Under the pieces are notes generated by a model. That model saw nothing but the letters and a program-made list of their open reading frames with translations, made no database searches and was not told the origin of the DNA. From contig DASRFK010000152.1 in NCBI GenBank assembly GCA_035651635.1, positions 19,505-83,504 on the forward strand: a DNA stretch of 64,000 nt, read 5' to 3'. Of this stretch, positions 41,834 through 62,923 are shown in pieces. Origin of the DNA: Verrucomicrobiia bacterium (lineage in GTDB: Bacteria; Verrucomicrobiota; Verrucomicrobiia; Limisphaerales; UBA8199). Numbering within the stretch: position 1 is the first letter of the stretch; each line of letters opens with the position of its first letter. The position numbers and the translations under genes are program-made.

Positions 41834-41888
41834 TGTTTTACTGAGGCTTGTCGGCAATTCTCCAACGCCCCTAGGTCTGATCACCGAA

Positions 41889-42016
41889 TGCTAGAGCCAT
41901 GCCACAGCGTGGAATGGCCGCAATTAGCGCGATTCACCCAGAAAGCCTCGTGCCTGAGAGGTTTTTTACGAACCATTAACTCGCGACTCTTCAAGAATTC
42001 GCGAAGTTTCACGAAA
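41889..42016 (-). promoter_or_regulatory. type I sigma-54 promoter cassette (upstream TCGCGA boxes + -24/-12) facing the isochorismatase-porin-amidohydrolase operon
   Basis: Minus-strand TGGCATggctcTAGCA at 41889..41904 (GG-N10-GC). TCGCGA/TCACGA boxes at 41981..42014, ~90 bp upstream. The whole segment is colinear with the cassettes at 42923.., 61561.. and 62651... Confidence 0.7.
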
Positions 42017-42086
42017 TTGGGGGCGGTCATGCCGCGTGCTTTCAACTCCGGCAGCGTCGCTTGCAGGGTTGGTGCTGTGGGCAAGT

Positions 42087-42102
42087 TGGTACAACTCTAG
42101 CG
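42087..42102 (+). promoter_or_regulatory. sigma-54-like promoter facing the opposite way from the same upstream boxes
   Basis: TGGTACaactcTAGCG; 15 of 17 identical to the cassette promoter TTGGCACAACTCTAGCA at 62651..62666. GG-N10-GC is preserved, but the -24 C is changed to T. Confidence 0.45.
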
Positions 42103-42117
42103 AGGGGATGGTCTATT

Positions 42118-42873
42118 ATGAGCACTTCATCTAATGGTATTGATCAGCCACCTGAAATGCGTGATAACGATTTTTTCACAGACATCCCGAGTGGTCACAA
42201 GTTGCCCTTGGGTTGGGTAGAGTGCGCTTGGCAGCCCGAGGTCACCACCAAACAGCAAGCGCTCTGCAACGAACCAGGCCGCCTCGTGGCGACAAACGGA
42301 GGAACCCCTGCGATGGCCTACAAGAAAGGATTTACTCGTCGGCGTGGAACCATGAAGGCGATTATTTTCTACGACGATGTCGCCTCCGCAGCCAGAGCGG
42401 TCGTTATACTACGCCGTTGCATGTCTTTGGCCAGAGGCGGTGCCCGATGGGATATCAAGCCATGGTGTGTCGGGGTTCTGAAATTGCCCTTGGCCGCCGA
42501 CGAGGCGCTTATTGAATCGATTGATGCCGACGTAATCGTGTTTGCAGCTCTTCGTGCGCCTACACTCCCCAAATCTCTCAAGGAATGGCTGCAATGGTGG
42601 AATCTTCGCCGTCAGTCAAGGGAACCGGCCGTTGTGATTACTCGCGCATATTATGATGCCAGGCGCAGCGGATTTGATCATGAATTGCTGAGTTTTGCCG
42701 CACAAAATGAGCTGGACTTGATCGTTGAAGCGAACCCGCCAGTTGGGGATCGTCTGGCCGATGAGCTCGTCCAACCCAAAATGTCGCTTCCGCAGGCCGC
42801 CATGGATGAAGCAACGATGGGTGCGGCCGTTACGCCCCATTATTCATATCGAAATTGGGGCATTAACGAGTGA
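42118..42873 (+). CDS. hypothetical protein
   Basis: ORF with GAGGGGA 9 nt before the ATG at 42118. Alternative start MKAIIFYDDVASAARAV at 42352. I recognise no domain. Confidence 0.5.
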   Translation: MSTSSNGIDQPPEMRDNDFFTDIPSGHKLPLGWVECAWQPEVTTKQQALCNEPGRLVATNGGTPAMAYKKGFTRRRGTMKAIIFYDDVASAARAVVILRRCMSLARGGARWDIKPWCVGVLKLPLAADEALIESIDADVIVFAALRAPTLPKSLKEWLQWWNLRRQSREPAVVITRAYYDARRSGFDHELLSFAAQNELDLIVEANPPVGDRLADELVQPKMSLPQAAMDEATMGAAVTPHYSYRNWGINE

Positions 42874-42922
42874 CGTTTCACGACCTCCTTAGGAATTCTG
42901 TGTGAGGGGATTCGCTAGGAAC

Positions 42923-43049
42923 TTTTTCGCGAAAGTCGCGAATTCTCGAAGGTTCGAGAGTGATCTCGCCAACGTTCGTTTCAGGCATTGGGCGTTTTTG
43001 GCTGAATTTAGCCGATTTCCTGCAACTCCATGTTGGCACAGCTCTAGCA
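42923..43049 (+). promoter_or_regulatory. type I sigma-54 promoter cassette
   Basis: TTTTTCGCGAAAGTCGCGAATTCTCGAAGG at 42923..42952. TGGCACagctcTAGCA at 43034..43049. The conserved leader CCCAGAGGCGTTGGGAGAGTTCAACAGGCCTTAAAGAAG follows. Confidence 0.75.
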
Positions 43050-43146
43050 TTAGGGAGCTGCACCCAGAGGCGTTGGGAGAGTTCAACAGGCCTTAAAGAA
43101 GTGAAAAGACGAGCACCAAAACTCGGGCACCGCGACCGGTACCAAA

Positions 43147-43353
43147 ATGAAAATGGCAAAAGTGCTCCTGGTTTGCTTGGAAATAGTAGCCGCGTTTGTT
43201 ACGCCGCTAGATGTTCGAGGCGACGATCTGCTGTTGCAGTCGCTAAGTCCTTGCGGTTGGTTTATCAAAGCCAACCACCTGCGGTCCTGCTCTGGCAACC
43301 AAATTGCCGAAAAAAGTCGATTTGCTAACCCGGCCACAAAAGCAGCGAAATGA
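43147..43353 (+). CDS. small hypothetical protein (68 aa)
   Basis: First ORF after the cassette leader. Its TGA overlaps the ATG of the next gene (ATGA), which suggests translational coupling. Confidence 0.4.
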   Translation: MKMAKVLLVCLEIVAAFVTPLDVRGDDLLLQSLSPCGWFIKANHLRSCSGNQIAEKSRFANPATKAAK

Positions 43354-44000: not shown

Positions 44001-44534
44001 GCCCTGAAATCTCGACCAACATCTGAACTTCTTGGGCGAGTAATCTGACATGGGCAGTTAAATAGCGGCCTCCACGGGCTGGTCATTTCGATTCGTTTGG
44101 GCCACCAATTTTCGCATCCTCCAGAAATCCTCGACAAAACGTCAATGCGGTATGAATGTGTACCCTGATCCCCTACCGGCAAACGCTGCCACGCACCTAA
44201 TGTGACAGGTCGCAGGTCTTCTCGCCAGCCGCCGCTATCCACCTGAACCAGGTTCCTTAAACTGGGATAAAAGCCTGAAGAGGAATCCCATTTTCTCTTG
44301 ACCATTTTTCGGCTGAATTCTGGCAGTTAGATCTAGATCGCTTTTCCTCATGCCCGAGCATTGGCCTATTTTATTAAAAATATCGCACTACTGAGGTGAC
44401 AAGAGAGGACACGAATGAAAGAAACAGCGCGCCCTTCAGGGTGATGGTTACGGGCTGTCGCTCGAAGGTGCGTCGGCAGCCGATCTGATCGGCCGCTGCC
44501 GGAAAGCAAAAAACTGAATATTTGATGAAAAGGA

Positions 44535-46619
44535 ATGGACAAGGATACTTCATTTAAACACAAAGTGGCCCTTGTGACGAGTGGCACTTGCGGAATTGGC
44601 GCAGCCGCAGCCCTGGCGCTGGGCCGGGTGGGAGCGAAAGTGGTTGTAGCCGGCCGGGGCGAAAGCGAGGGCCAGGCGGTGCTGGATGCCATCAAAAAGT
44701 CCGGCGGCGAAGGGACGTTAGTCAAAAAGGATGTCGGCCGTGAGGTCGATGTGAAGGCGATGGTGGACCGGACCGTGGCGGCGTTCAGTCGTTTCGATTT
44801 TGGCTTTAAGCAAGGAATCCGCGTGAACGCCGTGGCCTTCGGCACGGTAGAAATGGGGGTTCTCATCTGGAATTTCGAAGGTGAGATTGTCGAGGCCAAT
44901 GATTCGTTTCTGAAAATGGTGCAATACGACCGTGAAGACCTCGTCAAAGGTCGCGTGCGTTGGACAGATCTGACACCTGCCGAATGGCGTGATCGCGATG
45001 CACGCGCCTTAAACGACTTAAAGAAGGCGGGCACCGCCCAGCCGTATGAGAAAGAGTTCTTGGGGAAACAAGGCAACCGGGTACCGGTGCTAGTCGGTGG
45101 CGCATTGTTCCAGAAAGGAGGAAACGAGGGTGTAGCTTTCGTGTTCGATCTCACAGAACAAAAGTGCGCCGAGAAGGCCTTGCGGCGAAGCGAAGCCTAT
45201 TTGGCTGAATCACAAAAATTGAGCCACACGGGAAGCTGTGGCTGGAATGTTTCCAACGGAGAACTTTTCTGGTCGGAGGAAACTTACCGAATTGTGGGTA
45301 TCGCTCCAACCACCAAGCCGACGCTCGAGTTGGTATGGCAAATCGTCCATCCAGAAGACCGCGACATAGTGCAGCGGGCAATAGATGACGCCGCGAGAAT
45401 CAGTGCAGACATAGATTCAGAGCACCGTATTGTGATGTCTGATGGGTCATTTAAGGATGTCCACCTTGTCATGCACGCAGTCAAGAACCAAAACGGCAAT
45501 CTCGAGTACATCGGTGCGCTGACGGACGTGACCGCGACGAAAAATGCGTTCCGGCAGATTGAAGGATTGAAAGATCAGCTCCAAAGAGAGAATGTGGCGC
45601 TCCGCGAAGAGGTTGATGCAGCGTCCATGTTCGAGGAAATTATCGGCACTTCGGCTCCGTTAAGGGCGGTGTTGTCTCGCATCTCCAAGGTCGCCCCCAC
45701 CGATTCCACCGTTTTGATCACTGGCGAGACCGGCACGGGTAAGGAGCTAATCGCCCGGGCCATCCATAAACGGTCCGCGCGTGCGGGGCAGGCCTTTGTC
45801 AGCGTGAATTGCGCAGCTATACCACCTTCTCTAATCCATTCGGAATTGTTCGGCCACGAAAGGGGTGCTTTCACCGGAGCAATGCAACGGAAACTTGGCC
45901 GCTTCGAACTGGCGCGGGGAGGCACCTTTTTTCTCGACGAGGTCGGTGAGCTCACAGCGGAGACGCAAGTCGCGTTATTACGGGTATTGCAGGAAAATGA
46001 ATTCGAGCGGGTAGGCGGAACACAGCCTATCCGAGCGGACGTGCGGCTGATCGCAGCGACAAATCGCGACCTCAAGGAGGCAATTGCGTCCGGCGCATTT
46101 CGCAGCGACTTGTTCTACCGGCTGAACGTTTTTCCGATCGAAGTGCCGCCCCTGCGCGAGCGCAAAGAAGATATCCCGATTTTAACCGAGTATTTTATTC
46201 ACCGTTTCGCCGGCCGCATGGGGAAGAGACTCTCGGGTATCGGCCGGAAGACATTGGAGTTATTTCAATCCTACCGTTGGCCCGGCAACATTAGGGAACT
46301 GCAAAACGTCGTGGAGAGATCCGTCATCGTTTGCGAGACCGAAACGTTCTCAGTAGATGAAAGCTGGCTCGCGCGACAAGGCCCGCCGACCGAAACCACT
46401 GTCCGTCCGCTGTCTCAGAGGCTTGCGACAGACGAAAGGGCATTGATCGAAGGCGCCATGGCTGAAACACACGGCAGAGTTTCCGGCCCAGCCGGCGCGG
46501 CGGTAAAGCTCGGCATACCAGCCTCCACACTGGAATCGAAAATCCGAGCGCTCAGAATTAACAAACACCAGTTCAAGCTCGCGGCATATCCCGGACCGCT
46601 TTCATATCCTCTCACCTGA
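44535..46619 (+). CDS. sigma-54-dependent enhancer-binding protein (2 PAS + AAA+ + Fis-type HTH) with an in-frame SDR remnant at the N-terminus
   Basis: AAA+ core VLITGETGTGKELIARAIH, GAFTGA (GAFTGA loop), FLDEVGEL, RVGG, RLIAATNRDL, FRSDLFYRLNVFPI, WPGNIRELQN. C-terminal HTH AAVKLGIPASTLESKIRAL. Residues 1-106 look like an SDR with its catalytic core deleted. Alternative start at 44853. Confidence 0.9.
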   Translation: MDKDTSFKHKVALVTSGTCGIGAAAALALGRVGAKVVVAGRGESEGQAVLDAIKKSGGEGTLVKKDVGREVDVKAMVDRTVAAFSRFDFGFKQGIRVNAVAFGTVEMGVLIWNFEGEIVEANDSFLKMVQYDREDLVKGRVRWTDLTPAEWRDRDARALNDLKKAGTAQPYEKEFLGKQGNRVPVLVGGALFQKGGNEGVAFVFDLTEQKCAEKALRRSEAYLAESQKLSHTGSCGWNVSNGELFWSEETYRIVGIAPTTKPTLELVWQIVHPEDRDIVQRAIDDAARISADIDSEHRIVMSDGSFKDVHLVMHAVKNQNGNLEYIGALTDVTATKNAFRQIEGLKDQLQRENVALREEVDAASMFEEIIGTSAPLRAVLSRISKVAPTDSTVLITGETGTGKELIARAIHKRSARAGQAFVSVNCAAIPPSLIHSELFGHERGAFTGAMQRKLGRFELARGGTFFLDEVGELTAETQVALLRVLQENEFERVGGTQPIRADVRLIAATNRDLKEAIASGAFRSDLFYRLNVFPIEVPPLRERKEDIPILTEYFIHRFAGRMGKRLSGIGRKTLELFQSYRWPGNIRELQNVVERSVIVCETETFSVDESWLARQGPPTETTVRPLSQRLATDERALIEGAMAETHGRVSGPAGAAVKLGIPASTLESKIRALRINKHQFKLAAYPGPLSYPLT

Positions 46620-46636
46620 GGCAAGGGGCAAGCTTG

Positions 46637-46838
46637 ATTCGCGAAGTTTCGCGATTTAACGATTTTCGCGATTTTAATTCCGTCGCTTCGAGATAATTCG
46701 CGCCAGTTCCCAGCACCGCTCTTGTGGCTGTCTTCCAAAATCATAGTGAAATCGCAGGAAAAAAGGCCAGCTCCATTGAATTAACGGAACAATTCCAAGG
46801 CGAAGGCTCTCTTCGACCAGATTGGCACTGTTCTAGCA
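46637..46838 (+). promoter_or_regulatory. type II sigma-54 promoter region (three TCGCGA boxes + -24/-12)
   Basis: ATTCGCGAAGTTTCGCGATTTAACGATTTTCGCGATTTT at 46637..46675. TGGCACtgttcTAGCA at 46823..46838. About 140 nt upstream of the 2Fe-2S subunit gene. Confidence 0.75.
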
Positions 46839-46979
46839 ATAGTGACATCGTCGGGCACGTGAAAGGCTCCGGGGTCCACTGAAGCTGGATTTTAGTGTGG
46901 TGTATTTATTTGTGCAGTCTCTCGGCTGCATAGGTGGAACCAAAAACTTTCACGCCGAAGTCGAGCTTCGGCCCACGAT

Positions 46980-47534
46980 ATGAACGAGAGCAAAACAGAA
47001 GAAAGGCAAGGCGACTGGCGCGTGCATTTGAGCATGATGGTCAACGGTGCGCTTCGCTCATTAAAAGTCGAGCCGCGTATGACACTGCTGGATGCATTAC
47101 GTGAGGAATTGGGTCTGACTGGTCCAAAGAAATCATGCGACCGCGGCGAGTGCGGAGCATGTACGGTGCACATCGAAGGCCGGCGCATTCTTTCTTGTAT
47201 GACTCTGGCGGTGATGCACGAAGGAAAGCAGATCACCACTATAGAAGGGTTGGAGAGGGAAGGTCGGCTCCACCCGCTTCAGGAGGCATTCATCGAGCAT
47301 GATGGATTTCAATGTGGCTTCTGCACCTCGGGCCAAATCATGTCGGGGGTGGCGATGATCCAAGAGGCAAAAGCAGGTTGGCCGAGTGCTGCCACACCGG
47401 ACGTTACCAAGCCCTTCACGACGGCCGATCTTTCCGAAGCCGAAATTCGTGAGCGCATGAGCGGTAATCTTTGTCGCTGCTCTTGCTATCCCAACATCGT
47501 TGATGCCGTGGTTGACGCGACGCGAGGGAGTTGA
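46980..47534 (+). CDS. molybdenum hydroxylase small subunit, (2Fe-2S)-binding (PaoA/CoxS/YagT-like)
   Basis: CDRGECGACTV, GFQCGFCTSGQIMS, LCRCSCYPNI. No Tat signal seen. Confidence 0.9.
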   Translation: MNESKTEERQGDWRVHLSMMVNGALRSLKVEPRMTLLDALREELGLTGPKKSCDRGECGACTVHIEGRRILSCMTLAVMHEGKQITTIEGLEREGRLHPLQEAFIEHDGFQCGFCTSGQIMSGVAMIQEAKAGWPSAATPDVTKPFTTADLSEAEIRERMSGNLCRCSCYPNIVDAVVDATRGS

Positions 47535-47537
47535 ACG

Positions 47538-48533
47538 ATGCATCCTTTTACCTATTCCAGAGCGGCGGATCCGGCCGCAGCAATTGCTGCGCACGCTCAA
47601 GATCCTCGCCTCGCATTCATTGCGGGCGGAACCGATCTGCTCGGCCTGATGAAAGACCGCGAGGCGATTCCCGATCGCCTCTTGGACATCAATGGTTTGC
47701 CTCATATGGCGCGCATCGAAGTATTACGCGATGGCGGCGTGCGGATCGGAGCATTGGCTCGAATGAGTGATGTGGCCGCTGATGAAGAGATTCGCCGTCG
47801 ATTCCCGGTGATCGCCGAAAGCTTGTTGTTCGCCGCATCCGGCCAGCTTCGAAACATGGCGTCAATGGGCGGCAACATCATGCAGCGCACGCGTTGTGCC
47901 TACTTCCGCGACGAAGATGACCTTCCTTGCAACAAAAGGAAACCGGGTTCCGGCTGCGCCGCCCGGTATGGTCTCAATCGGCTTCACGCGATCTTTGGAT
48001 GGTCTGACGAATGCGTCGCTACACATCCGTCGGACTTGGCAGTAGCACTTTCGGCCCTGGACGCAGAAGTCGTGGTTCGCGGGCGGAACGGCGATCGGAC
48101 GATTTCGTTCACTGAATTTCATCGCTTGCCGGGGAACACACCGAACCGTGACAACGTGCTTGATCGCGGAGATCTAATTGTGGCGATTGAAGTGCCCCAT
48201 AGGATCGAGGGTCGCGCATCGCATTACCTCAAGCTTCGTGATCGGGAGTCCTACGAGTTCGCTCTGGTATCTGCCGCGGTCGCAGTCGCCACCAATGGTT
48301 CGCGGATCGGATCGGTGCGGCTCGCGATGGGCGGTGTCGCACATAAACCTTGGCGGCTGACCGCGGCCGAATCGGCCCTGCGGGGTGTATCGCTCGATGA
48401 TGTCCAGGCACTCAGAACAGCGATCGCCACGTCGTTTGTAGACGCTCGCCCGCTCGCACACAATTCCTTTAAGATTGAGCTTGCTCAGCGCGTCGCACTC
48501 CGCGCGGTGCAAATCGCAGGAGCACGCGCATGA
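47538..48533 (+). CDS. molybdenum hydroxylase FAD-binding subunit (PaoB/CoxM/YagS-like)
   Basis: 331 aa. FIAGGTDLLGLMK, ASMGGNIMQRTRC, CxxxxC insert typical of the YagS type. Confidence 0.85.
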   Translation: MHPFTYSRAADPAAAIAAHAQDPRLAFIAGGTDLLGLMKDREAIPDRLLDINGLPHMARIEVLRDGGVRIGALARMSDVAADEEIRRRFPVIAESLLFAASGQLRNMASMGGNIMQRTRCAYFRDEDDLPCNKRKPGSGCAARYGLNRLHAIFGWSDECVATHPSDLAVALSALDAEVVVRGRNGDRTISFTEFHRLPGNTPNRDNVLDRGDLIVAIEVPHRIEGRASHYLKLRDRESYEFALVSAAVAVATNGSRIGSVRLAMGGVAHKPWRLTAAESALRGVSLDDVQALRTAIATSFVDARPLAHNSFKIELAQRVALRAVQIAGARA

Positions 48534-50737
48534 ATGCAGTCGGACAACCTCTCTCACGTTTCGACGGACGCCTTAAGGTGACTGGCGCAGCACGCTATAC
48601 AGCAGACATTTCGATTCAAGGCGCGGTTCACGCCTCGTTTGTCTCAAGTTCGATAGCTCACGGCCGGACAACTGCGATCGACACCACTGCCGCCGAAAAA
48701 GCTCCTGGCGTGCTCGCCGTATTCACGCATCGCAATATGCTGCTCATGAATCCGACACCAAAACCTTGGAGTCACCTACATCCGCACGGGCAGTCGTATC
48801 TGCCCCTTCAGGACGACAAAATCCTATACGCTGACCAGCCGATTGCTTTGGTTGTCGCCGGAACGCTTGCCCAGGCAGCCTATGCCGGCACGTTGGTCAG
48901 GACTGATTACGAAGTTCAGCCCCCAGTGGTGTTCGGTTCGCAGACGCTGAAGGACGCCGTTCAGCCTCCGCAATTCCTGTGGCCCGTCTCCTCGTCAGTC
49001 GGAAATGCCGATGCCGCAATTTCGGCGAGCCCTGTTAGAATGAAGCAGACTTACAGCACTTCAGATCGCCACCACAATCAAATGGAACCGCACGCAACGA
49101 CTGCGATTTGGGATGGCGACGGCACATTGACGCTGTATGAAACGACCCAGCACATCTTTGGTTGTCGGGATCTGGTGTCGATCGTGCTCGGCATACCACC
49201 GGAAAAGATTAATGTCGTGTCGCAGTTCCTCGGCGGAGGTTTCGGCGGCAAGGCTTACGTGTGGCCGCACACCCTGCTGACGATTCTCGCCGCAAAGGTG
49301 CTTAGGCGGCCGGTGCGCTTCCAGCTCACACGCGCGCAAATGTATTCAATGGCGGGCCACCAGGCCGCGAGTGTGCAGACAATCGCGCTGGGCGCCACTA
49401 TCGAAGGCAGGCTGAACGGCATCCGCCACGACAGCATTTCGCCGACCGCCGTGTCCGACAACTACATCGAGTATGCGGCCCTTTGCGCGCGCTCCCTGTG
49501 GAGCGCCACTGGCGGCATCGCCACAAATCATAAAATCGTCCACGTCAACCGAAACACTCCGACAGCGCTCCGGGCCCCGCATGAGGCGCTCGGACATTTT
49601 GCGCTCGAAAGCGCGATGGACGAACTCGCGTATGCCACTGGTGTCGATCCGGTTCAGTTGCGCATGCTCAACGATACTGAGGTCGATCCAGACACCGGTC
49701 GTCCTTTCTCTTCGCGTGCTATGCGTAGGTGTCTGATAGATGGAGCGGCGAGATTCGGCTGGGAAAAGCGGACACCCGAGCCGGGCTCAATGCGCCGCGG
49801 TCGTTACCTTCTTGGGCAAGGCATGGCAGGCGCAATCTACACCCATTGGCGCTGGCCTGGACGTGCGCGAGTCACGCTGAACAGAGATGGTTCAGCGTTG
49901 GTTGAGTTGGGGACGCATGAGATAGGTACCGGCACCTACACCGTAATGCAGCAAGTCGCTGCTGACGCGCTTGGACTGCCGTCGCAAAAAGTGACCGTGC
50001 GGATTGGTGACGCCAGGTTACCACAGTCGCACGCAAGTATCGGCTCAGCTACAATGGCTAACGCCGGCGCGTCCGTTATGCTGGCGGCAAAGGCCGCGCG
50101 TGACAAAGCAATCGAGCTGGCTTGCTCCGGGCGTGGCGCGCTTTTCGGTGACGCCAATATTGACGACGTAATCGTTAGAGATGGCAGGCTTGTGCATGCG
50201 AAAAAGAACCTGGAAGTCACCTATGTCGATCTGCTGGCGCGGAACAACCTTCCTTCACTGACGGGCGATGGAAACTACGAGCCAAGCCCCGAAGGAGCGA
50301 AGGCGGTTTTTAGCTTTTCTGCGGTGTTCGCCGAAGTAATCGTCGATCCCGACTTCGGTGTCGTGCGCCTGAGCAGATTTGTCGGAGCTTACGACTGCGG
50401 CCAGGTCATCAATCCAAAGACAGCGCGCAGCCAAGCCATCGGAGGAATAATTTGGGGTATCGGACAAGCCCTGCTTGAACAGTCCGAAACTGACCCCGCG
50501 CTGGGTCGATTTCTTCACCGAAACTATTCCGGCTACCTCGTGCCGACTTCGGCAGATGTTCCAAAGCTCGACGTTGTCTTCGTTGGACAGTTCGACGAGG
50601 AAGCAAGCCCAATAGGGGCCAAGGGCTTGGGCGAACTTACTGCGGTATCAGTTGCGCCAGCAATCGCTAATGCCGTCTATCATGCCACCGGCAAGCGCGT
50701 GCGCGATCTGCCGATCACGATCGAGAAGCTACTGTGA
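48530..50737 (+). CDS. molybdenum hydroxylase large subunit, molybdopterin-binding (PaoC/CoxL/YagR-like)
   Basis: 735 aa. GKARYTAD-type start (VTGAARYTADI), QMEPH, GGGFGGK, HEIGTGTYT, IGAKGLGE. Overlaps the upstream gene by 4 nt. Confidence 0.9.
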   Translation: MNAVGQPLSRFDGRLKVTGAARYTADISIQGAVHASFVSSSIAHGRTTAIDTTAAEKAPGVLAVFTHRNMLLMNPTPKPWSHLHPHGQSYLPLQDDKILYADQPIALVVAGTLAQAAYAGTLVRTDYEVQPPVVFGSQTLKDAVQPPQFLWPVSSSVGNADAAISASPVRMKQTYSTSDRHHNQMEPHATTAIWDGDGTLTLYETTQHIFGCRDLVSIVLGIPPEKINVVSQFLGGGFGGKAYVWPHTLLTILAAKVLRRPVRFQLTRAQMYSMAGHQAASVQTIALGATIEGRLNGIRHDSISPTAVSDNYIEYAALCARSLWSATGGIATNHKIVHVNRNTPTALRAPHEALGHFALESAMDELAYATGVDPVQLRMLNDTEVDPDTGRPFSSRAMRRCLIDGAARFGWEKRTPEPGSMRRGRYLLGQGMAGAIYTHWRWPGRARVTLNRDGSALVELGTHEIGTGTYTVMQQVAADALGLPSQKVTVRIGDARLPQSHASIGSATMANAGASVMLAAKAARDKAIELACSGRGALFGDANIDDVIVRDGRLVHAKKNLEVTYVDLLARNNLPSLTGDGNYEPSPEGAKAVFSFSAVFAEVIVDPDFGVVRLSRFVGAYDCGQVINPKTARSQAIGGIIWGIGQALLEQSETDPALGRFLHRNYSGYLVPTSADVPKLDVVFVGQFDEEASPIGAKGLGELTAVSVAPAIANAVYHATGKRVRDLPITIEKLL

Positions 50738-50779
50738 GTCAGTTACGTTATTAAGGTCCTTAACGGGAGAAGCCGATTT

Positions 50780-53789: not shown

Positions 53790-53909
53790 ATGCTCAAACT
53801 GTCGGGGCGTGTGATAGGTTCCGGGTCCCGCTGGCCTGAGGAACATGTTTTACACACACGAACTAATGAAGATGTCGGTTTTATTTCGAACAAAGAAAGG
53901 AAAAACGCA

Positions 53910-54984: not shown

Positions 54985-56097
54985 ATGATGGAAGGGATTA
55001 CCACACAAACCGAGAAGACCGCCAACCAGCCTGCCGACGTTGGAGCCCCACCGGCCAAACCGGGTTTACCGCCGCCCAGCAAACGCAGGCGCCGGCTGCA
55101 GATTCTCCTTGGCGTGGGCGCCACCATTCTGGTCGCGGGCGCCATCGTCTACTATTTGCTGTTTATCGCTCCTTACGAGAACACCGATGACGCGTTTATT
55201 GAAGGCCACGTCACGTTCGTGAGTCCGCGGGTGTCGGGGCAGGTGGTTCGCTTGCTGGTCCGCGACAACCAGCGGGTTAAGGAGGGTGACCTCCTGGTGG
55301 AGATCGATCCGAGCGATTTCCGGGCGAGAGTGGAACAAGCACGTGCCAATTTGGCGTCTGCGCAAAGCCAGTCGGAGCAGGCCAAGGCCCAGGTGGTGGT
55401 GGATGAGGCCAAGGTAGAACAGCAAAAGGCCGCTGCGACGGCCCTCGAAGCCGAGGCTCTCCGGGCGGAAGCAGACCGGAAACGTTACCTGGACGTGCAA
55501 GGCCTGGCGGTTTCGCAGAGTCAGCGTGATCTCGCGCAAGCGCAAGCCCGTTCTAGTGGCGCCAACGTTGAGGCCGCTCGCCAACAGGTGAAAGCCGCGC
55601 AAGCGCAGGTCTCGCTCAGCCGCGCGAGCGTCGAGACGGCCGCCGCCGGGATCAAACAGGCTGAGGCCAGTCTGGAGTTGGCCGAACTCAATCTTTTCTG
55701 GACGAAAATCGTGGCCCCTGCGGCTGGCCGTGTGGGCCGCCGCACGGTCGAGCAAGGCGCATACCTGCAGACTGGGCAGTCTATGTTAGCCATTGTGCCG
55801 GAGGATGTATGGATACTGGCCAATTTCAAGGAAACCCAATTGACCCACATGCGTCCGGGCCAGCCAGTCAGGATCCACATCGATGCCTATCCCCAGCGGG
55901 AGTATAAAGGCAAGGTGGACAGCTTGCAGCCCGGGACCGGAGCCCGCTTCAGCCTTCTGCCGCCGGAAAACGCGGTAGGCAACTATGTGAAAGTGGTGCA
56001 GCGAGTTCCGGTCAAGATCGTATTCGATGAACCGTTGGATCCGCAGCTTGACATCGAGCCCGGCCTGTCGGTCGAGCCGAAGGTGAGGGTAAAATGA
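54985..56097 (+). CDS. HlyD/EmrA-family periplasmic adaptor of a tripartite MFS efflux pump
   Basis: TM anchor ILLGVGATILVAGAIVYY, then TDDAFIEGHV..ISPRVSGQV, a long coiled coil, and NYVKVVQRVPVKI. Confidence 0.85.
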   Translation: MMEGITTQTEKTANQPADVGAPPAKPGLPPPSKRRRRLQILLGVGATILVAGAIVYYLLFIAPYENTDDAFIEGHVTFVSPRVSGQVVRLLVRDNQRVKEGDLLVEIDPSDFRARVEQARANLASAQSQSEQAKAQVVVDEAKVEQQKAAATALEAEALRAEADRKRYLDVQGLAVSQSQRDLAQAQARSSGANVEAARQQVKAAQAQVSLSRASVETAAAGIKQAEASLELAELNLFWTKIVAPAAGRVGRRTVEQGAYLQTGQSMLAIVPEDVWILANFKETQLTHMRPGQPVRIHIDAYPQREYKGKVDSLQPGTGARFSLLPPENAVGNYVKVVQRVPVKIVFDEPLDPQLDIEPGLSVEPKVRVK

Positions 56098-57680
56098 GCC
56101 CTGCCGGAGATCCAGGGCAAGCGTCTGCTGCGGAGATGTGGCGGCCGCGCGCCAATCCGTGGCTCATCGCGCTGGCGGTGATGCTGGCCACGTTCATGGA
56201 GGTGCTCGACACGTCAATCGCTTCAGTGGCTCTGCCTTACATTGCGGGCAACCTGGGAGCCACCCGGGAAGAAGCCACGTGGGTGCTGACAAGCTATCTC
56301 GTGTCGAACGCGATTGTGTTGCCGGCGAGCGCCTGGTTTTCGAGCGTCTTCGGGCGCAAACGATTTTTGATCACCTGCATCATTATCTTCACCTGTTCCT
56401 CCTTTATTTGCGGGGCCGCCACCAGTTTAGGAATGCTGATCGTGGCTCGGATAGCGCAGGGCGCCGGGGGCGGGGCGCTTCAACCCCTCTCGCAGGCAAT
56501 CCTGCTCGAGAGCTTTCCGCCAGAGCGGCGCGGTGTGGCCACGGCGGTTTTCGGGGTCGGTGTCATATTCGCTCCAATCATCGGCCCGACGCTGGGGGGT
56601 TGGCTCACGGACAGTTATTCATGGCGCTGGGCTTTTTACATCAACATCCCGGTCGGGGCGCTGGCGGTGTTCCTCATTTCTCTGCTCGTCGAAGATCCCC
56701 CTTATATTCGCGCTGCTCGGCGCGGCCGGCTCGACTTGATCGGTTTTGGCCTGGTGAGTTTATGGTTGGCCACGCTGCAGATCACCCTGGACAAAGGCCA
56801 GGAGGTGGATTGGTTTGGCGCGGTCTGGTTGCGCTGGTTCACCGGCATTTCGCTTGTCTCGATGATAGGCTTCATTGCCTGGGAACTCTGGACGCCCGCG
56901 CCGATTGTGAATTTGCGGGTCCTCAAGAACCGCAACTTCGCCGTGGGCTGCGGATTGTACGCCTGCTTCGGCGCCGTGCTCTACGCCATGATCACGTTGC
57001 AGCCATTATTCCTGCAGACCCTTTTGGGTTATAGCGCCTTGGACGCCGGATTGACCGTCAGCCCGCGAGGCCTGGGCTCGCTCCCGGCCCTTTTCCTTGT
57101 GGGGTTACTGATTCGCCGGATCAGCCCCCGCTTCCTTGTGGGGTTCGGTTTCCTGGTGTTCGGATTTTCCAGCCTGCTATTCAGCCGGTTCGACCTCCAG
57201 GTGGCCATGAGCAACATCCTGGCGCCGAACATCCTGAACGGGTTTGGAATAGGGTTAATTTTTGTACCTTTGACCACCATGGCCCTGGGCACGTTGCCCA
57301 ACGACCAAATCGGCAGCGCCACTGGAATTCAAAACCTTCTGCGCAATATCGGCGGCAGCATAGGCATTTCCTTCGTGACGACCATGCTCTCCCGTTACTC
57401 CCAGGCGCACCAGGTCTTCCTGGTGGGGCATGTATCCGAGCTGAACCCGGTGTTCCAGCAGCGATTAGGAGTCCTGCAGGGCGTGTTCCAAGGGAACTTC
57501 GGCCCGCCGGACGCTTTGCTGCGGGCGCAGGCTTCAATCAACAACACTGTGGTCCAGCAGGTAAATTACTGGGCTTTTGTTCAACTATTCTATGTCATCG
57601 CGTGGGTTTGTGCGATCTGCATCCTGGGCGTGCTGCTATTCCGCAGCGTAAAATCCGCCGGCCCCGTCGTGGTGCATTAA
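56094..57680 (+). CDS. DHA2-family (EmrB/QacA-type, 14-TMS) MFS efflux transporter
   Basis: FMEVLDTSIASVALPYIAGNLGA, GRKRFL, RIAQGAGGGAL. ATGA overlap with the adaptor gene. Confidence 0.9.
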   Translation: MSPAGDPGQASAAEMWRPRANPWLIALAVMLATFMEVLDTSIASVALPYIAGNLGATREEATWVLTSYLVSNAIVLPASAWFSSVFGRKRFLITCIIIFTCSSFICGAATSLGMLIVARIAQGAGGGALQPLSQAILLESFPPERRGVATAVFGVGVIFAPIIGPTLGGWLTDSYSWRWAFYINIPVGALAVFLISLLVEDPPYIRAARRGRLDLIGFGLVSLWLATLQITLDKGQEVDWFGAVWLRWFTGISLVSMIGFIAWELWTPAPIVNLRVLKNRNFAVGCGLYACFGAVLYAMITLQPLFLQTLLGYSALDAGLTVSPRGLGSLPALFLVGLLIRRISPRFLVGFGFLVFGFSSLLFSRFDLQVAMSNILAPNILNGFGIGLIFVPLTTMALGTLPNDQIGSATGIQNLLRNIGGSIGISFVTTMLSRYSQAHQVFLVGHVSELNPVFQQRLGVLQGVFQGNFGPPDALLRAQASINNTVVQQVNYWAFVQLFYVIAWVCAICILGVLLFRSVKSAGPVVVH

Positions 57681-57716
57681 GGATGGGGGTAAATGCATTT
57701 AAAGACGCGGGGAGCC

Positions 57717-58355
57717 ATGAAACGAGTTTTGGTCATCGAACGCGAATACGGCGCGGGGGCCAGCGAGATCGCCGAAAAAGTGGCGCAACAGCTCGGCTGG
57801 AAGCTGCTCGACCACGCGCTGACCGAGGAGATCGCCCGTATAGCAAAAGTTCATCCCGAGGTCTGCAAACGCCGAGAGGAGCGCAAGGACTCGACGCTTT
57901 ATCGGCTGGCCAAGGTGTTCTGGCGCGGCAGTTCCGAGCGCAGCGCCCGTTTCGAGGATGAAGATCTGCTGGATGCCGACCGGCTGGTTTGTCTGTCGCA
58001 ACAGGTGATCGAGCAATCGGCCGCGGTCGGCCAGTGTGTCATTGTGGGACGCGCCGCGGCCTGGTTCCTGCGCAACCGTGCCGATACCTTCTGTGTGTTC
58101 CTGTACGCTCCGCGCGACGTCAGGTTCCATCGCGTGCTGCAAGTCGTCAAGGACAAGGCCAAAGCCATTGACCTAGTTGACACTGTGGACCGGGAGCGCA
58201 GGGAATTTATCAGGCATTATTTCGACGCAGAATGGCCTGGCCGCCAATTCTATCACGCCATGCTCAACACCGCGGTCGGCATCGATGCCACAGTGGACAA
58301 CATCCTGAATTTGCTCGGTGCCGCAAATAGGCGCGGGGAGGACAGCAAATCGTGA
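57717..58355 (+). CDS. cytidylate-kinase-like family protein (Cytidylate_kin2-type)
   Basis: MKRVLVIEREYGAGASEIAEKVAQQLGWKLLDHAL..VIVGRAA..FCVFLYAP...R. Sits between the pump and outer-membrane-factor genes. Its stop overlaps the next start. Confidence 0.5.
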   Translation: MKRVLVIEREYGAGASEIAEKVAQQLGWKLLDHALTEEIARIAKVHPEVCKRREERKDSTLYRLAKVFWRGSSERSARFEDEDLLDADRLVCLSQQVIEQSAAVGQCVIVGRAAAWFLRNRADTFCVFLYAPRDVRFHRVLQVVKDKAKAIDLVDTVDRERREFIRHYFDAEWPGRQFYHAMLNTAVGIDATVDNILNLLGAANRRGEDSKS

Positions 58356-59821
58356 AGCAAGGATTTCAATCGTTTGCATTTATCTGTCTTGTGGCCCTGG
58401 CCGGCTGCAAAGTCGGACCTGATTACCACCCACCCCGGGCCGCTGTTCCTGCTCAATGGGCCTCGGCGCTGGCCGGGGGTGAGACTAATCAGCCGGCCGC
58501 AGAAGCGGAGTGGTGGAAGAACTTTCGCGACGCCGAGTTGGATTCGTTAATAGCGCGCTCGGTAAGGTCAAACCTTGATCTCCGGGTGGTTGCAGCGCGG
58601 GTGCGGGAGGCCCGGGCCGCGCGGGGCGTCGTAGCCGCGGACCTATGGCCCTCCCTAAACGCTTCCGCCTCATACGCGAACCAGAGGGTTAGTAAGAACA
58701 GCCCGCAACTCAGCTCATTGCCGTTGCCCCCGAATTTTCCCTTCGTAAACAACGTTTATCAGGCTGGCTTCGACGCGGCATGGGAACTTGACGTCTTTGG
58801 CGGCACACGTCGCGCCGTCGAGGCGGCCAATGCGGACATTGCCAGCGCGGAGTATGGCCGGCGCAATGTGCTACTGTCGCTGCTGAGCGAGGTGGCCCGC
58901 AATTACGTGCAAACCCGGGGCTTTCAACGTCGGCTCGCCATCGCCGACTTGAACATTCGAGCTCAGCGGGATGTGCTGGCCCTCACTCGAGACCGTTTCC
59001 GGGTAGGCCTCAGCAGCCAACTCGATATTGACCAGGCCGCCGCGCTCCTTGCCACCACCGAGGCGCAAGTCCCTGTTCTCGAGAGCGGCTTCAAAGCTTC
59101 CGCCTACCATCTTGGTGTCCTGCTCGGTCAACCTCCAGGCGCGGTACTGGAAGAATTGTCGAAGGAGGCACCCATCCCCGCCTCTCCGCCGGAAGTGCCG
59201 GTTGGGCTACCTTCCGATTTGCTGCGGCGGCGGCCCGACATCCGGCAGGCCGAGCGCGCGTTGGCCGCCGGTACCGCCCGCATCGGCGTGGCCGTAGCCG
59301 ATCTTTTCCCAAAATTCTCGCTCACCGGCAACATTGGCGCCCAAAGCGTCAGTGCGGCGACATGGTTCACCGGCGCGAGTTCGTTCTGGTCCGTCGGCCC
59401 CACCGTACAATGGCGCATTTTTGCTGCCGGCCGCATCCGGTCAAATATCCGGGTTCAAAACGCGCGCCAGGAACAGGCACTGGCCAATTACGAACAGACA
59501 GTGCTCGTTTCATTCGAGGATGTGGAAAATGCGCTGACTAGTTATGCAAAGGAACAGATTCGCCGCCAATCTCTGATGGCCGCGGTGCAATCCAATCAGC
59601 AGGCATTGGAAATATCACGGCAGAGTTATGGCAGCGGTCTGGCCGATTTCATCAACGTGCTGGACTCCGAACGTTCCCTCTATCAAACCCAGGACGCACT
59701 GGTGCAAAGCGATCTCGCTGTCAGCCTTGACGTCGTCGCTCTCTACAAGGCCCTTGCCGGCGGGTGGGAAGATGGGGGGAAAGAAGCGGCGAAAGGGGCT
59801 CCTCCCCTCCCCAAGCAATGA
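58352..59821 (+). CDS. NodT-family outer-membrane efflux lipoprotein
   Basis: GTG start. Lipobox LVALAGC. Two OEP repeats. WW..F.D..L, LFPKFSLTG, ALYKALGGGW-type end (ALYKALAGGW). Confidence 0.9.
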   Translation: MKQGFQSFAFICLVALAGCKVGPDYHPPRAAVPAQWASALAGGETNQPAAEAEWWKNFRDAELDSLIARSVRSNLDLRVVAARVREARAARGVVAADLWPSLNASASYANQRVSKNSPQLSSLPLPPNFPFVNNVYQAGFDAAWELDVFGGTRRAVEAANADIASAEYGRRNVLLSLLSEVARNYVQTRGFQRRLAIADLNIRAQRDVLALTRDRFRVGLSSQLDIDQAAALLATTEAQVPVLESGFKASAYHLGVLLGQPPGAVLEELSKEAPIPASPPEVPVGLPSDLLRRRPDIRQAERALAAGTARIGVAVADLFPKFSLTGNIGAQSVSAATWFTGASSFWSVGPTVQWRIFAAGRIRSNIRVQNARQEQALANYEQTVLVSFEDVENALTSYAKEQIRRQSLMAAVQSNQQALEISRQSYGSGLADFINVLDSERSLYQTQDALVQSDLAVSLDVVALYKALAGGWEDGGKEAAKGAPPLPKQ

Positions 59822-60486: not shown

Positions 60487-60603
60487 ATATTCCTCCTATC
60501 AGGATGTTAATTCCGCGTTGATCACCACGAACGAACTCGGACAAGAGCCAGCTTGCAATGAAACAACGAGGATTGACGCATAGTCTTTGCTCGTAACGGC
60601 GTT

Positions 60604-61413
60604 TCAAAAGAAGAACGTTATACCCAGCAACCCTGTTACGCCGTTGAGACCGAGGTTCGGGTTGCTGATTCCAGCGCAGGACCAATGGACATAACGCGCC
60701 TCCAGGCTGATGGCCATGTTGTCTTTCACGAACCATTGGACTCCCGCTCCCGCCTGGAGGTTGAACTCGAACGTCCCGCTCAAATCAGGAGGCCCGATGC
60801 TCGTGGCTGTCACACCAGCTCCGCCGTCAACAAATGGGATCCACCGTGTTCCCGTTGCAAAGTCGTAGCGCAGGTGCGGCGTCAGACCCACGAGCCATTC
60901 CCTGCTGGGGGAGAATTGGGCGCCGGTGAATAATTCGAGCCGGAATTCCAGGTTGCCCCGATACCAATGGCCCTCACCCCAAACATGGCTCAACATGTGA
61001 CCATACGAGAGAGTGATGAGCGCCAAGTCGTGAGCTTGCACGCTGCCAAAGCTTGAAAAGCCATAGGTGGCCCCGGCGCTTAGACCAAACGAATGCGTCG
61101 TGGACCGAAAGCCTTCGCCAATGCTATGCTCCCATATGCTTGCCTTCTCGGATCCAAGATTGAACTCCTCCGTCGATACACTGTTGGTGAGCGGTAGCAT
61201 TGGGTGTGCGCGGGCCTCCAACGGGGCCGCCGCCCCGGCGCACAAAACCGAGTCGTTGAAGAAGTTTATTAATCCCGAATCGGCACTTGTGAGAGCCGTA
61301 CTTGCCTGCTGTTGTTCCGTCCGAAGGTCACCGCCGGCTATGGCACTCAGTGATGGATTGACCGCGGCTAGCAAGAGGGCGGCTGATATTGTTCTACAAA
61401 TTGTTTGTTTCAC
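60604..61413 (-). CDS. PagL-like acyloxyacyl hydrolase / outer-membrane beta-barrel protein carrying a borrowed N-terminus
   Basis: GTG start. C-terminal two thirds have alternating beta-strand pattern, H.S motif VHWSCAG, and C-terminal GITFFF. The first ~53 aa are near-identical to the SYLF gene at 61976..62506. Confidence 0.5.
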   Translation of the reverse strand: MKQTICRTISAALLLAAVNPSLSAIAGGDLRTEQQQASTALTSADSGLINFFNDSVLCAGAAAPLEARAHPMLPLTNSVSTEEFNLGSEKASIWEHSIGEGFRSTTHSFGLSAGATYGFSSFGSVQAHDLALITLSYGHMLSHVWGEGHWYRGNLEFRLELFTGAQFSPSREWLVGLTPHLRYDFATGTRWIPFVDGGAGVTATSIGPPDLSGTFEFNLQAGAGVQWFVKDNMAISLEARYVHWSCAGISNPNLGLNGVTGLLGITFFF

Positions 61414-61560
61414 ACTCTGGTTTTCCAGTTTTTTGGTTTAATTACATCCGTGAACACATTCTGTTTGAACTATTCCGTCCACTGTTGTTTTGAACGATTC
61501 GTCTTTTTGCTTCTTTAAGCCTTTGTGAATTTCCCGACGCCTCTGGGTCTAGTTCGCTGA

Positions 61561-61687
61561 TGCTAGACCCGTGCCAAAGCGGAGCTGCAGGGAATCAGAT
61601 GGATCAGCCTGAAAAATCCAATGCCTGAGAAGCGCTTCGTGAGTCAACTTGCGATACTTCGAGGATTCGCGACGTTTCGCAAAAAAG
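61561..61687 (-). promoter_or_regulatory. type I sigma-54 promoter cassette
   Basis: Minus-strand TGGCACgggtcTAGCA at 61561..61576. Boxes (minus strand) TTTTTGCGAAACGTCGCGAATCCTCGAAG at 61657..61686. Confidence 0.75.
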
Positions 61688-61975
61688 TTATCGAACGAGC
61701 CTCATCTCGGCCATACCGTTCCCGGTGAGACACGAATGACTCGGCCAGCAATGGCCAGAGTCGATTGAGTTTTAAGGGAAGCGCGGCCAAGGGCTCTTCC
61801 CAGGCCGCGCTCCATTGCGCGAGTCTGTTATCCCGGCGTCCTTGGCGACAGGCAACGGATAAGGGATCTTGAACTCAACTGTCTCCTCGAGAAATTGGGC
61901 ACCTCGTTGGAACGAAAAAGTCTCACAAACTCTTGGACATCAATTTCGCGTGTCCTGCGAGCGACCGGAAGCAGA

Positions 61976-62506
61976 TCAGTCTAACGGCTTATATTTGAAC
62001 TTTTGGCCACCGATTGTCGCCTGGACCATCAGCCCTGTTCTTGGAAGGGTGAACACCGTCACACCGCTCTTATACCTGGTATTTGCCGCTGCACCGTCCG
62101 CAGCGGCAACGGCACTCACTTCCGCGCTCATTTCAAAATTGCTTTGTTTGAAGTTTGACAACGCCTCGGGGGTCTCGAAGAAAATAACTTCGTAGAAGGA
62201 TTGGCCTCCGGCCTGCGGTCCAACGTTGACCTCTGTGAGTGTGGCTTCCCCTATAGGCTTTCCTTTTTCGTAGAGGACCCCTTTCCCACGCTCACTAATA
62301 AGGCCTCCCTTGCCGACGCTAGGGAATACGACGAAACCAACCGAGCCGTTGAAGAAGTTTGTTAATCCCGAATCGGCACTCGTGAGAGCCTTAATTGCCC
62401 GCTCTGCTTCCATCCGAAGATCGTCGCCGGCTATCGCGGTCAGTGCGGGATTGACCGCAGCTAGCAAGAGGGCGGCTGATACTGTGCTGCGAATTGTTTG
62501 TTTCAT
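61976..62506 (-). CDS. SYLF-domain (Ysc84-like, COG2930-type) secreted protein
   Basis: Signal peptide. GFVVFPSVGKGGLI..GKGVLYEKGKPIG..VGPQAGGQSFYEVIFFETPEALSNFK..NFEMSAEVSAVAA..GGQKFKYKPL. Confidence 0.6.
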   Translation of the reverse strand: MKQTIRSTVSAALLLAAVNPALTAIAGDDLRMEAERAIKALTSADSGLTNFFNGSVGFVVFPSVGKGGLISERGKGVLYEKGKPIGEATLTEVNVGPQAGGQSFYEVIFFETPEALSNFKQSNFEMSAEVSAVAAADGAAANTRYKSGVTVFTLPRTGLMVQATIGGQKFKYKPLD

Positions 62507-62650
62507 ACCTCGTTTTCAAGTTTTTGGCTTTAGTTACATCAGTCAACACATGTTTTCTAAACTGTTTCGTCGATTATTGTTTTGCACCATTCGTCTCTTC
62601 CCTTCTGAGGCTTTGTGAATTTACCAACGCCTCTGGGTTTAGTTCGCTGA

Positions 62651-62778
62651 TGCTAGAGTTGTGCCAAGTGGAGTTGCAGAAAATCTGCCATATCAGCCTG
62701 AAAAAAACCAAATGCCTGAGACGAGCTTCGTAAGTTAACTTGCGAAGCTTCGAGAATTCGCGACGTTTCGCGAAAAAG
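62651..62778 (-). promoter_or_regulatory. type I sigma-54 promoter cassette
   Basis: Minus-strand TGGCACaactcTAGCA at 62651..62666. Boxes (minus strand) CTTTTTCGCGAAACGTCGCGAATTCTCGAAG at 62748..62778. Confidence 0.75.
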
Positions 62779-62923
62779 TCCATCAAGCTAAATGCTGACA
62801 CAGGCGCATCAAATGAATGATTCGCCTGAAGACGAAACCATTCCTGAAGGTTTGTCCCCCGAGGGTTTGTGTGGCACTTATAATTGTAGTTTGTCGAAGC
62901 ACGGAATCACGCCGAAATGCAAA

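Follow-up and report, generated by a model that had tools for sequence, protein, structure and literature searches.

The best-described sigma-54 systems, such as glnAp2/NtrC, nifH/NifA and norV/NorR, have GG and GC doublets 10 bp apart within a TGGCAY...GCA promoter, activator sites about 100–200 bp upstream on one face of the helix, and an AAA+ activator with a GAFTGA motif encoded beside its targets. Several such sites are needed for assembly of the activator ring, for example three in the case of NorR. We could observe the same layout in a 64-kb window (64,000 nucleotides of contig DASRFK010000152.1, from a Verrucomicrobiia bacterium). Here, seven sites around the gene for an FhlA-like enhancer-binding protein (EBP) with PAS, AAA+ and helix-turn-helix (HTH) domains (44535-46619) are probably sigma-54 (−24/−12) promoters that form a local regulon of this protein. 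On the best reading of the sequence, one activator would serve seven neighbouring gene sets (detoxification, efflux, envelope) that were recruited by repeated copying of a module. The initial annotation of the window had considered the architecture to be undescribed. It is instead the standard sigma-54 layout, and related EBPs in Acidobacteriota show the same layout with TTGC in the −12 element.

The regulons centred on single EBPs in Desulfovibrio vulgaris and the Clostridiales reportedly combine EBP-specific upstream motifs with −24/−12 promoters, mostly at operons beside the EBP gene, and are said to use a canonical −12 element. Their reconstruction is described for D. vulgaris (PMC4641369) and the Clostridiales (PMC6615313), and our literature search found no reconstruction of this EBP-centred kind for Acidobacteriota. 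In Cereibacter (Rhodobacter) sphaeroides, RpoN paralogues have been demonstrated, each with a promoter subset set by the −11 base and the cognate bacterial EBP (PMC11999139). A further related phenomenon is that of putative mobile promoters, homologous upstream regions before non-homologous genes in one genome that have been read as rewiring (Matus-Garcia et al. 2012, PMC3488235; PMC3575422). Both the sigma-54 enhancer-promoter layout and the reuse of promoters before unrelated genes (PMC3488235) are already known; new at the present locus are an A at −14 throughout a putative regulon, the copying of whole enhancer-promoter-leader units with legible scars, and the occurrence in uncultured Acidobacteriota.

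A search of the window with the pattern TGGYAY-N4-CTAGC resulted in seven matches, at 41890(-), 42087(+), 43034(+), 46823(+), 53774(+), 61562(-) and 62652(-), while dinucleotide-preserving shuffles gave 0.05 on average and never more than one. These are the seven GG-N10-GC promoters proposed in the initial annotation, all of them recovered at its coordinates, and the common CTAGCA or CTAGCG that it assigned to the −12 region is indeed present in 7/7 sites. Every site likewise has the GG-N10-GC spacing and a TGGCAY −24 element (TGGTAC in one), with TAGC[A/G] at −12 and not TTGC[A/T]. All seven sites are intergenic and directed toward a gene start with no open reading frame (ORF) between; the predicted leaders measure, in site order from 41890, 45, 5, 87 (or 290), 131, 110, 137 and 134 nt. 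The canonical form TGGCAY-N5-TTGCW has no match in the window, a two-mismatch search of the window revealed no other well-placed sigma-54-like promoter, and about 18 kb of further sequence from the same 91-kb metagenome contig (ENA ERZ27279688, k141_1075983) contain no additional TGGYAY-N4-CTAGC site. Scans of the window for sigma-70-like promoters and intrinsic terminators stayed at chance level.

The initial annotation treated these sites as copies of a single cassette. Our alignments revealed two unrelated colinear families instead, A with four copies and B with two, plus the singleton core at 42087. Family A comprises 41890(-), 43034(+), 61562(-) and 62652(-), which are colinear over about 200 alignment columns. 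Pairwise identity in this family is 65–82% in the box array, 46–76% in the spacer, 78–89% in the promoter core and 58–88% in the first 45 nt of the leader, and drops to 31–74% further downstream. The four colinear copies of the initial annotation are therefore real; of the leader of some 70 nt that it included, about the first 45 nt are well conserved in all four, and conservation fades beyond. The pair 61562 and 62652 is more alike, with the likeness continuing through the full 135-nt leader and 56 codons. Family B, which the initial annotation had missed, consists of 46823(+) and 53774(+); these are colinear over about 330 bp, beginning within the 3' end of the EBP gene. The core at 42087 agrees with that at 62651-62666 in 14/16 positions, and beyond the 16-bp core there is nothing in common.

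All four family A leaders also share a 15-nt block, ACC(C/T)AG(A/G)GGCGT(T/C)GG, at about +3 to +17 (41860-41874, 43062-43076, 61534-61548 and 62624-62638 on the promoter strand), which is conserved nearly as well as the core. No RNA structure or known motif accounts for this block. The family A leaders can form only a 5-bp stem, without compensatory change across the four, as opposed to what a structured RNA or riboswitch would display, and no Rfam family reached the gathering threshold anywhere in the window.

Upstream of the promoters lie arrays of short boxes related to TCGCGA. This hexamer is not enriched in the window overall (35 observed, 34 expected); it is remarkable for its arrangement. 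With up to one mismatch, TTCGCGAA forms nine adjacent pairs 7–12 bp apart, compared with 0.245 expected and a maximum of 3 in 200 shuffles; all nine are located upstream of the seven promoters and none elsewhere in the window. Each promoter lies 76–184 bp downstream of such a tight array. If the C of the GC is set as −12, the box centres of family A and of the divergent 42087 fall at about −102 to −134, and those of 46823 and 53774 at about −148 to −207. The initial annotation had listed two or three TCGCGA hexamers with centres 8–11 bp apart at six of the promoters. The arrays hold, but the exact hexamers do not at two sites: 61562 has a single exact TCGCGA with TTTGCGAA 10 bp off, and 41890 has two exact hexamers 18 bp apart, with a TTCACGAA box 10 bp from one of them. 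Its suggestion that 42087 uses the boxes of its divergent neighbour was borne out, as the centres of the array at 41976..42016 lie at −105 to −134 for 41890 and at −101 to −130 for 42087. Clustering, position, conservation in the related loci L092 and L097, and analogous arrays at related EBPs all point to activator-binding sites. They differ from canonical enhancers, which consist of one or two 17-bp inverted repeats, in being tandem dyads of 6–8 bp, and the spacers of the modules contain no match to the IHF consensus, unlike canonical systems. Within the family A array of 62652 we noticed a 26-bp near-perfect palindrome, AGCTTCGCAAGTTAACTTACGAAGCT (62724-62749, minus strand). Its counterparts in the other copies are degenerate, and it may represent an EBP site of the classical inverted-repeat type.

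In the mechanism that we propose, EBP dimers would bind arrays of three to five short dyad boxes (TTCGCGAA and degenerate forms), 8–10 bp apart on one face of the helix. The dimers would form the active AAA+ ring, which would reach the closed Esigma54 complex on TGGCAY-N5-TAGCA by looping and drive open-complex formation.

The arrays could also serve another regulator, given that several LysR genes lie nearby, or act as hairpin terminators of the upstream genes. The terminator scan did flag the array at 53607-53621 and the following T-run as a hairpin, the family B arrays directly follow the EBP stop codon or its remnant, and the EBP is assigned to the boxes by co-occurrence only. However, the stems are just 6 bp long, terminator-like matches are at chance level, and arrays between divergent promoters (41976-42016; L007) need no terminator. 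Furthermore, arrays accompany related EBPs in L092, L007 and L096, with a spelling that varies by EBP, and they keep fixed enhancer-like distances from the −24 element. We thus consider such another role of the arrays very improbable. As a separate observation, both family B arrays (53607-53630 and 46649-46680) are followed by TTTTAATT just after the EBP stop codon or remnant, and the boxes there might additionally terminate transcription of the EBP gene, if only weakly.

The activator gene is located amid the cluster and is, as the initial annotation stated, the only intact sigma-54 activator gene in the window; the EBP is also the only such activator in about 82 kb of the contig. Its AAA+ domain matched PF00158 across the full profile (E 3.6e-71), and the translation contains 'ERGAFTGA'. 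The C-terminus aligns to FhlA 348-690 and is 50–67% identical to the C-termini of many acidobacterial EBPs, and we take it to carry an HTH. The best solved relatives are ZraR, NifA and NtrC1. The best NCBIfam match was the C-terminal half of FhlA, with 379 bits against a cutoff of 830, which places the protein outside the FhlA equivalog, while many of its homologues carry the JGI label 'formate hydrogenlyase transcriptional activator'. As in FhlA-type EBPs, the AAA+ and HTH domains match the C-terminal half of FhlA, and the nearest relative, P0002 (residues 364-943, 88% identical to EBP residues 107-686), has upstream GAF domains in its first 363 residues. Unlike FhlA, the protein in the window has two PAS domains, has lost the GAF region, and has no formate-hydrogenlyase genes nearby.

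In place of the GAF region, EBP residues 4-106 (44535-44852) represent a degenerate, internally deleted 5' piece of an SDR gene; residues 4-93 are 60% identical to the SDR of locus L098. A 3' remnant of an ECH gene precedes it (Table 1). Since ECH-SDR is the gene order in L098, the ECH remnant, the SDR piece and the truncated EBP mark a rearrangement junction, which plausibly arose by tandem duplication. Without its GAF region, the EBP may now be controlled differently. Elsewhere in the window (1065-4650), we noticed a PAS/GAF/HisKA_3 histidine kinase and a GerE-type response regulator; the PAS domains of the kinase are 30–46% identical to those of the EBP.

A search of the genome collection with the EBP returned only relatives at 35–70% identity, the closest of them from Acidobacteriota, and none of these relatives has a TGGYAY-N4-CTAGC site. 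The orthologues of the ECH-like protein are 85–98% identical, one of them from an NCBI 'Candidatus Acidoferrum sp.'. By these matches, the DNA of the window would belong to an uncultured soil acidobacterium related closely to 'Candidatus Acidoferrum'. The most informative locus is L092, where the EBP is 87–88% identical and its stop codon is followed by TTCGCGAAgtTTCGCGAtttaaCGAAtTTCGCGAA boxes, a TTGGCACgaattTAGCAAT promoter and ECH. Compared with family B of the window, the box array and the core (TTGGCAC-N5-TAGCAAT) are kept, the array of copy 1 almost unchanged, whereas the leader has diverged and the spacer has done so beyond blastn detection. Such a footprint would be expected if the enhancer and promoter are functional, and suggests purifying selection. 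The conservation in L092 also implies that TAGCA, though not the preceding C, is older than the duplications in the window. In L097, module B and the EBP remnant are both preserved, at 93% identity. In L096, a 'Ca. Acidiferrales' metagenome-assembled genome (MAG), TTCGTGAA occurs three times, followed by TGGTGTccaaaTTGCT and a small protein. L007 has three TCGCGA boxes between the divergent sigma-54-like promoters TGGCACgtatcTGGCt and GGGTACgacgcTTGCA, beside a related EBP; these promoters precede a small NCPAYxREWI protein and an isochorismatase homologue. In seven further loci (L003, L018, L020, L024, L057, L064 and L069) the EBP stop codon is followed by dyad repeats of their own and TGGCAY-N5-TTGC. 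Both the general architecture and the association of an EBP with its own boxes are thus family traits.

These comparisons bear on the possibility that the repeats are passive debris of young segmental duplications and that some or all copies are inactive. The copies do lie at rearrangement junctions with gene fragments, 61562 and 62652 are about 85% identical over 445 bp with the coding part included, and the family B leader is not conserved in L092. However, the old pairs, with spacers of 46–69% identity, keep 78–89% in the core and 65–80% in the boxes, and in L092 boxes and core persist next to a spacer that blastn no longer detects. In addition, every copy faces a gene start with no ORF between, and the singleton at 42087 has the core alone in common with the others. 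It seems improbable that all this would be preserved in debris, although we give this explanation slightly more room than a different role of the arrays.

The spelling of the −12 element is the most distinctive feature of the sites. The tetranucleotide CTAG occurs 39 times in the window, where base composition predicts 244, a depletion of about 6-fold, and seven of the 39 occurrences are the −12 elements. Among 720 validated sigma-54 promoters, TTGC[A/T] is found 376 times, TAGC[A/T/G] only 19 times anywhere, and CTAGC once and not at −12 (PMC12316311 supplement). Because the spelling is so rare among these promoters, its presence in 7/7 sites is not due to chance. All copies also have a conserved TC ahead of the TAGC, with its A at −14, unlike canonical sigma-54 promoters. 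Our literature search found nothing on a TAGC −12 class or on sigma-54 promoters in Acidobacteria. Among the loci compared, only the window and its nearest relatives have this spelling, and the base at −14 differs across the group (T, G or A).

The TAGC might mark an altered specificity, either through a lineage-wide preference of sigma-54 for A in position −14 or through an additional RpoN paralogue dedicated to this EBP and regulon. All seven sites plus L092 and L097 use TAGC, in at least three sequence families, the spelling is rare among the validated promoters, CTAG is avoided elsewhere in the window, and RpoN paralogues that are paired with a bacterial EBP and differ in −11 recognition provide a precedent (PMC11999139). 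In comparison with C. sphaeroides, however, the distinguishing base of the window is at −14 and not at −11. EBPs of the same family are accompanied by TTGC in related Acidobacteriota, among them the 'Ca. Acidiferrales' MAG, and by TGGC in L007, so that −14 looks tolerant in this group and not re-specified. Moreover, the common descent of the modules accounts for the spelling without any change in sigma. We therefore regard altered specificity as unlikely. Somewhat less likely still is the broader proposal that the invariant TCTAGCA defines a separate sigma-54 promoter class, with a re-specified or paralogous RpoN tied to one activator and the module as a portable unit that recruits genes into an insulated regulon. 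The most economical explanation would be that the TCTAGCA −12 region is a signature of the ancestral target promoter of the EBP, with the core held by selection. The shared spelling was presumably kept by the function of the −12 region, position −14 being tolerant in this lineage.

How did the modules spread? The initial annotation concluded that upstream sites, promoter and leader had been copied as a unit. The alignments agree with this, but the unit is not a discrete cassette, as the copies carry coding fragments and lie at rearrangement junctions. The 61562/62652 pair is a 445-bp duplication with about 85% identity that encompasses box array, promoter, 135-nt leader and 56 codons. Since its N-terminus is native to the SYLF-domain gene, the PagL-like gene is a chimera that gained promoter, leader and signal peptide together. 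In family B, the duplication took in the 3' end of the EBP gene as well, and a xanthine-dehydrogenase-family operon is now found between EBP and ECH, which are adjacent in L092.

The genes appear to have been rewired recently, as in the relatives they belong to a single operon or are preceded by a different promoter. In L098, ECH, SDR, a pirin remnant, isochorismatase, M17_N-like, porin, ABM and amidohydrolase genes follow each other on one strand, and this row contains no sigma-54 module. Positions 4783-10233 of L098 are colinear with 36266..41833 of the window at 74–87% identity, and the homology begins at about 41830, which is the edge of family A copy 1. The ECH orthologues at 90–93% identity (L093, L094, L095 and L098) have no sigma-54 module either; they lie behind a different, common, non-sigma-54 upstream region. 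The SYLF orthologue in L099 (73%) is inside an operon without a module.

The alternative block upstream of ECH reads TTGG(C/T)..TTTTT..GAAATCTCGCACTTG.AGGTG..AC (L093 ~9920-9990, L095 ~9870-9950, L098 ~2850-2930). It adjoins divergent genes for an ECF-sigma (PF07638) and a Ser/Thr-kinase-TPR protein in L095, and the kinase-TPR gene only in L093; L085 (2216-5139), just past the window on its right side, also has an ECF-sigma and kinase pair. The block upstream of ECH may be an ECF-dependent promoter that was replaced by the sigma-54 module. In L097 (2799-5550), ECH is followed by a SnoaL-SDR-LysR block that corresponds to window positions 6409-8791, 46 kb off, and then by the sequence of window positions 29101-29385, which reflects either a large-scale strain rearrangement or a chimeric assembly.

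Like putative mobile promoters, the modules are homologous upstream regions before non-homologous genes. The published criteria demand that 50 nt or more ahead of the coding sequences align at no less than 80% identity, and that neither flanking coding sequence aligns (PMC3488235). In family B, the core is 84% identical over 62 nt and the downstream genes are unrelated, but the upstream sides align (EBP 3' end and remnant). The pair 61562/62652 reaches about 85% identity, but its alignment takes in the first 56 codons, and the older family A pairs are 46–80% identical depending on the segment, so that several pairs remain under the identity criterion. The present case further differs from the published ones in that a whole enhancer, sigma-54 promoter and leader (190–450 bp) was copied, that the copies stay within 21 kb around the activator gene, and that coding fragments expose the junctions.

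Homologous modules of about 190–450 bp ahead of unrelated genes could also be taken for a miniature mobile element that carries a promoter, of the kind of a miniature inverted-repeat transposable element (MITE) or an integron-like element. However, no consistent terminal inverted repeats, as expected of a MITE or insertion sequence, and no target duplications were found at the copy ends, which differ from each other and include coding fragments of neighbouring genes. There is no transposase in the cluster, and beyond these 21 kb neither the contig nor the metagenome collection that was scanned yielded a further module copy; the scan of metagenome DNA with the family A box pattern gave five chance matches in coding sequence and did not recover the source contig itself. 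Of all the explanations that we considered, a mobile element is the hardest to believe. Coding fragments and differing ends without inverted repeats indicate local segmental duplications and rearrangements, and not transposition, as the way in which the modules spread. The alignments thus show that the putative regulon grew in this way, by events that carried array, promoter and leader to new genes.

Several points weigh against a regulon of this EBP. The dependence of the promoters on sigma-54 and on the EBP is one that we infer from sequence, and there is no rpoN gene on the approximately 82 kb of contig read. All seven sites depart from TTGC at −14. The boxes are connected to the EBP by their co-occurrence only, and its HTH_8 match remains below the Pfam threshold (19.6 bits, cutoff 22). 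An EBP that lacks the GAF region and starts in a dead SDR fragment is of uncertain expression and control. Finally, promoter 42087 is doubtful and the least secure of the seven, because its predicted start lies only 5 nt ahead of the called ATG.

Table 1. Positions of the modules, predicted promoters and genes in the window
Feature	Coordinates	Strand	Details
Operon behind promoter 41889-41904	36266..41833	-	From gene tables and Pfam
Family A copy 1 (box array, spacer, promoter, ~45 nt of leader)	41835..42020	-	From alignment and segment identities
Predicted sigma-54 promoter TGGCATggctcTAGCA	41889..41904	-	Predicted start ~41878; 45-nt leader to ATG 41833
Divergent-promoter box array	41976..42016		CTCGCGAC 41980-41987, TTCGCGAA 41998-42005, TTCACGAA 42008-42015
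Predicted sigma-54 promoter TGGTACaactcTAGCG	42087..42102	+	Predicted start ~42113; ATG 42118 of a 251-aa protein
Family A copy 2	42915..43110	+	Boxes 42926-42933, 42935-42942, 42943-42950, 42953-42960
Predicted sigma-54 promoter TGGCACagctcTAGCA	43034-43049	+	Family A copy 2
DUF2934 protein	43350-43658	+	Pfam; downstream of promoter 43034
Small 'NCPAYIREWI' protein	43740-44000	+	Downstream of promoter 43034
ECH gene 3' remnant	44422..44490	+	97.6% identity over 41 nt to L098 ECH 3' end; ECH residues 229-251 by tblastn
EBP ORF	44535..46619	+	PAS_9, PAS_3, sigma-54 AAA+ with GAFTGA, and HTH in 44853-46619
Family B copy 1	46633..46885	+	TTCGCGAA 46638, TTCGCGAT 46648, 46665; weaker boxes near 46687, 46697
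Predicted sigma-54 promoter TGGCACtgttcTAGCA	46823-46838	+	Family B copy 1
Xanthine-dehydrogenase-family operon	46980..53358	+	2Fe-2S, FAD and Mo subunits; ABM; XdhC; MobA/MocA-like
EBP gene 3' remnant (18 HTH residues, '...GLPASTLESKIRGLK')	53441..53515	+	Second activator gene; absent from the initial annotation
Family B copy 2	53583..53835	+	TTCGCGAT at 53598, 53606, 53615
Predicted sigma-54 promoter TGGCATgggtcTAGCA	53774-53789	+	Family B copy 2
ECH-like gene and efflux set	53910..59821	+	HlyD-type adaptor, MFS pump, cytidylate-kinase-like gene, outer-membrane factor
PagL-like gene	60604-61413	-	Behind family A copy 3
Family A copy 3, with duplicated leader and 56 codons	61246..61690	-	Boxes 61666-61683
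Predicted sigma-54 promoter TGGCACgggtcTAGCA	61561-61576	-	Family A copy 3; ahead of PagL-like gene
SYLF-domain gene	61976-62506	-	Behind family A copy 4
Family A copy 4, with leader and first 56 codons of its own gene	62339..62780	-	Boxes 62749-62774
Predicted sigma-54 promoter TGGCACaactcTAGCA	62651-62666	-	Family A copy 4; ahead of SYLF-domain gene

The minus-strand operon behind the first promoter starts with a C-terminal pirin remnant (41642-41833), followed by isochorismatase-family, M17_N-like, alginate-export-type porin, ABM and amidohydrolase_3 genes, and may extend to DoxX, AhpC and DsbA-like genes down to 34540. The 251-aa protein behind promoter 42087 has no family match. The small protein encoded at 43740-44000 is 50% identical (E 4e-27) to the product of the L096 gene directly behind EBP, box array and sigma-54 promoter, and also resembles a sigma-54-driven ORF in L007. 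Promoter 43034 may, on weak grounds, read through into the EBP gene, as no terminator is predicted between.

Small proteins of about 86–106 aa ending in NCP(A/P)Y(I/L)REWI (window 43740-44000, L096 13562-13843, L007 5763-6083 on the minus strand) are a recurrent first gene behind a sigma-54 promoter beside such EBPs in several Acidobacteriota. They have no Pfam or NCBIfam match and may be partners or modulators of the activator.

The gene content of the whole left half of the window suggests a neighbourhood for redox or quinone detoxification. We found four isochorismatase-family paralogues (281-784, 5688-6344, 12243-12872 and 40918-41640) and four LysR-type regulators (7888-8805, 11188-12198, 12980-14017 and 15155-16051), accompanied by FMN reductases, NmrA, DoxX, SnoaL, SDR and aldehyde dehydrogenase genes. 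At 2-798 there is a second pair of isochorismatase and amidohydrolase_3, with 74–81% DNA identity to L098, which is an older duplication of part of the putatively sigma-54-driven minus-strand operon. A block that resembles a glycan-utilisation locus (21517-29365; DUF5703, a GH92 mannosidase and three proteins without family match) interrupts the redox neighbourhood.

The predicted targets comprise an isochorismatase-like hydrolase, an amidohydrolase, a porin, a molybdo-hydroxylase, ECH, a tripartite MFS efflux pump, a PagL-like protein and a SYLF-domain protein. They suggest an envelope, redox or xenobiotic response. The predicted regulon in the window leaves our understanding of sigma-54 transcription unchanged. 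If the reading is true, it would be a clear natural example of a sigma-54 regulon that grew via duplication of an enhancer-plus-promoter module onto neighbouring genes, in a phylum, the Acidobacteriota, with very many such activators. Together with the relatives that use TTGC or TGGC, the seven promoters would provide natural test cases for the role of position −14, which bears on closed-complex stability and activator dependence.

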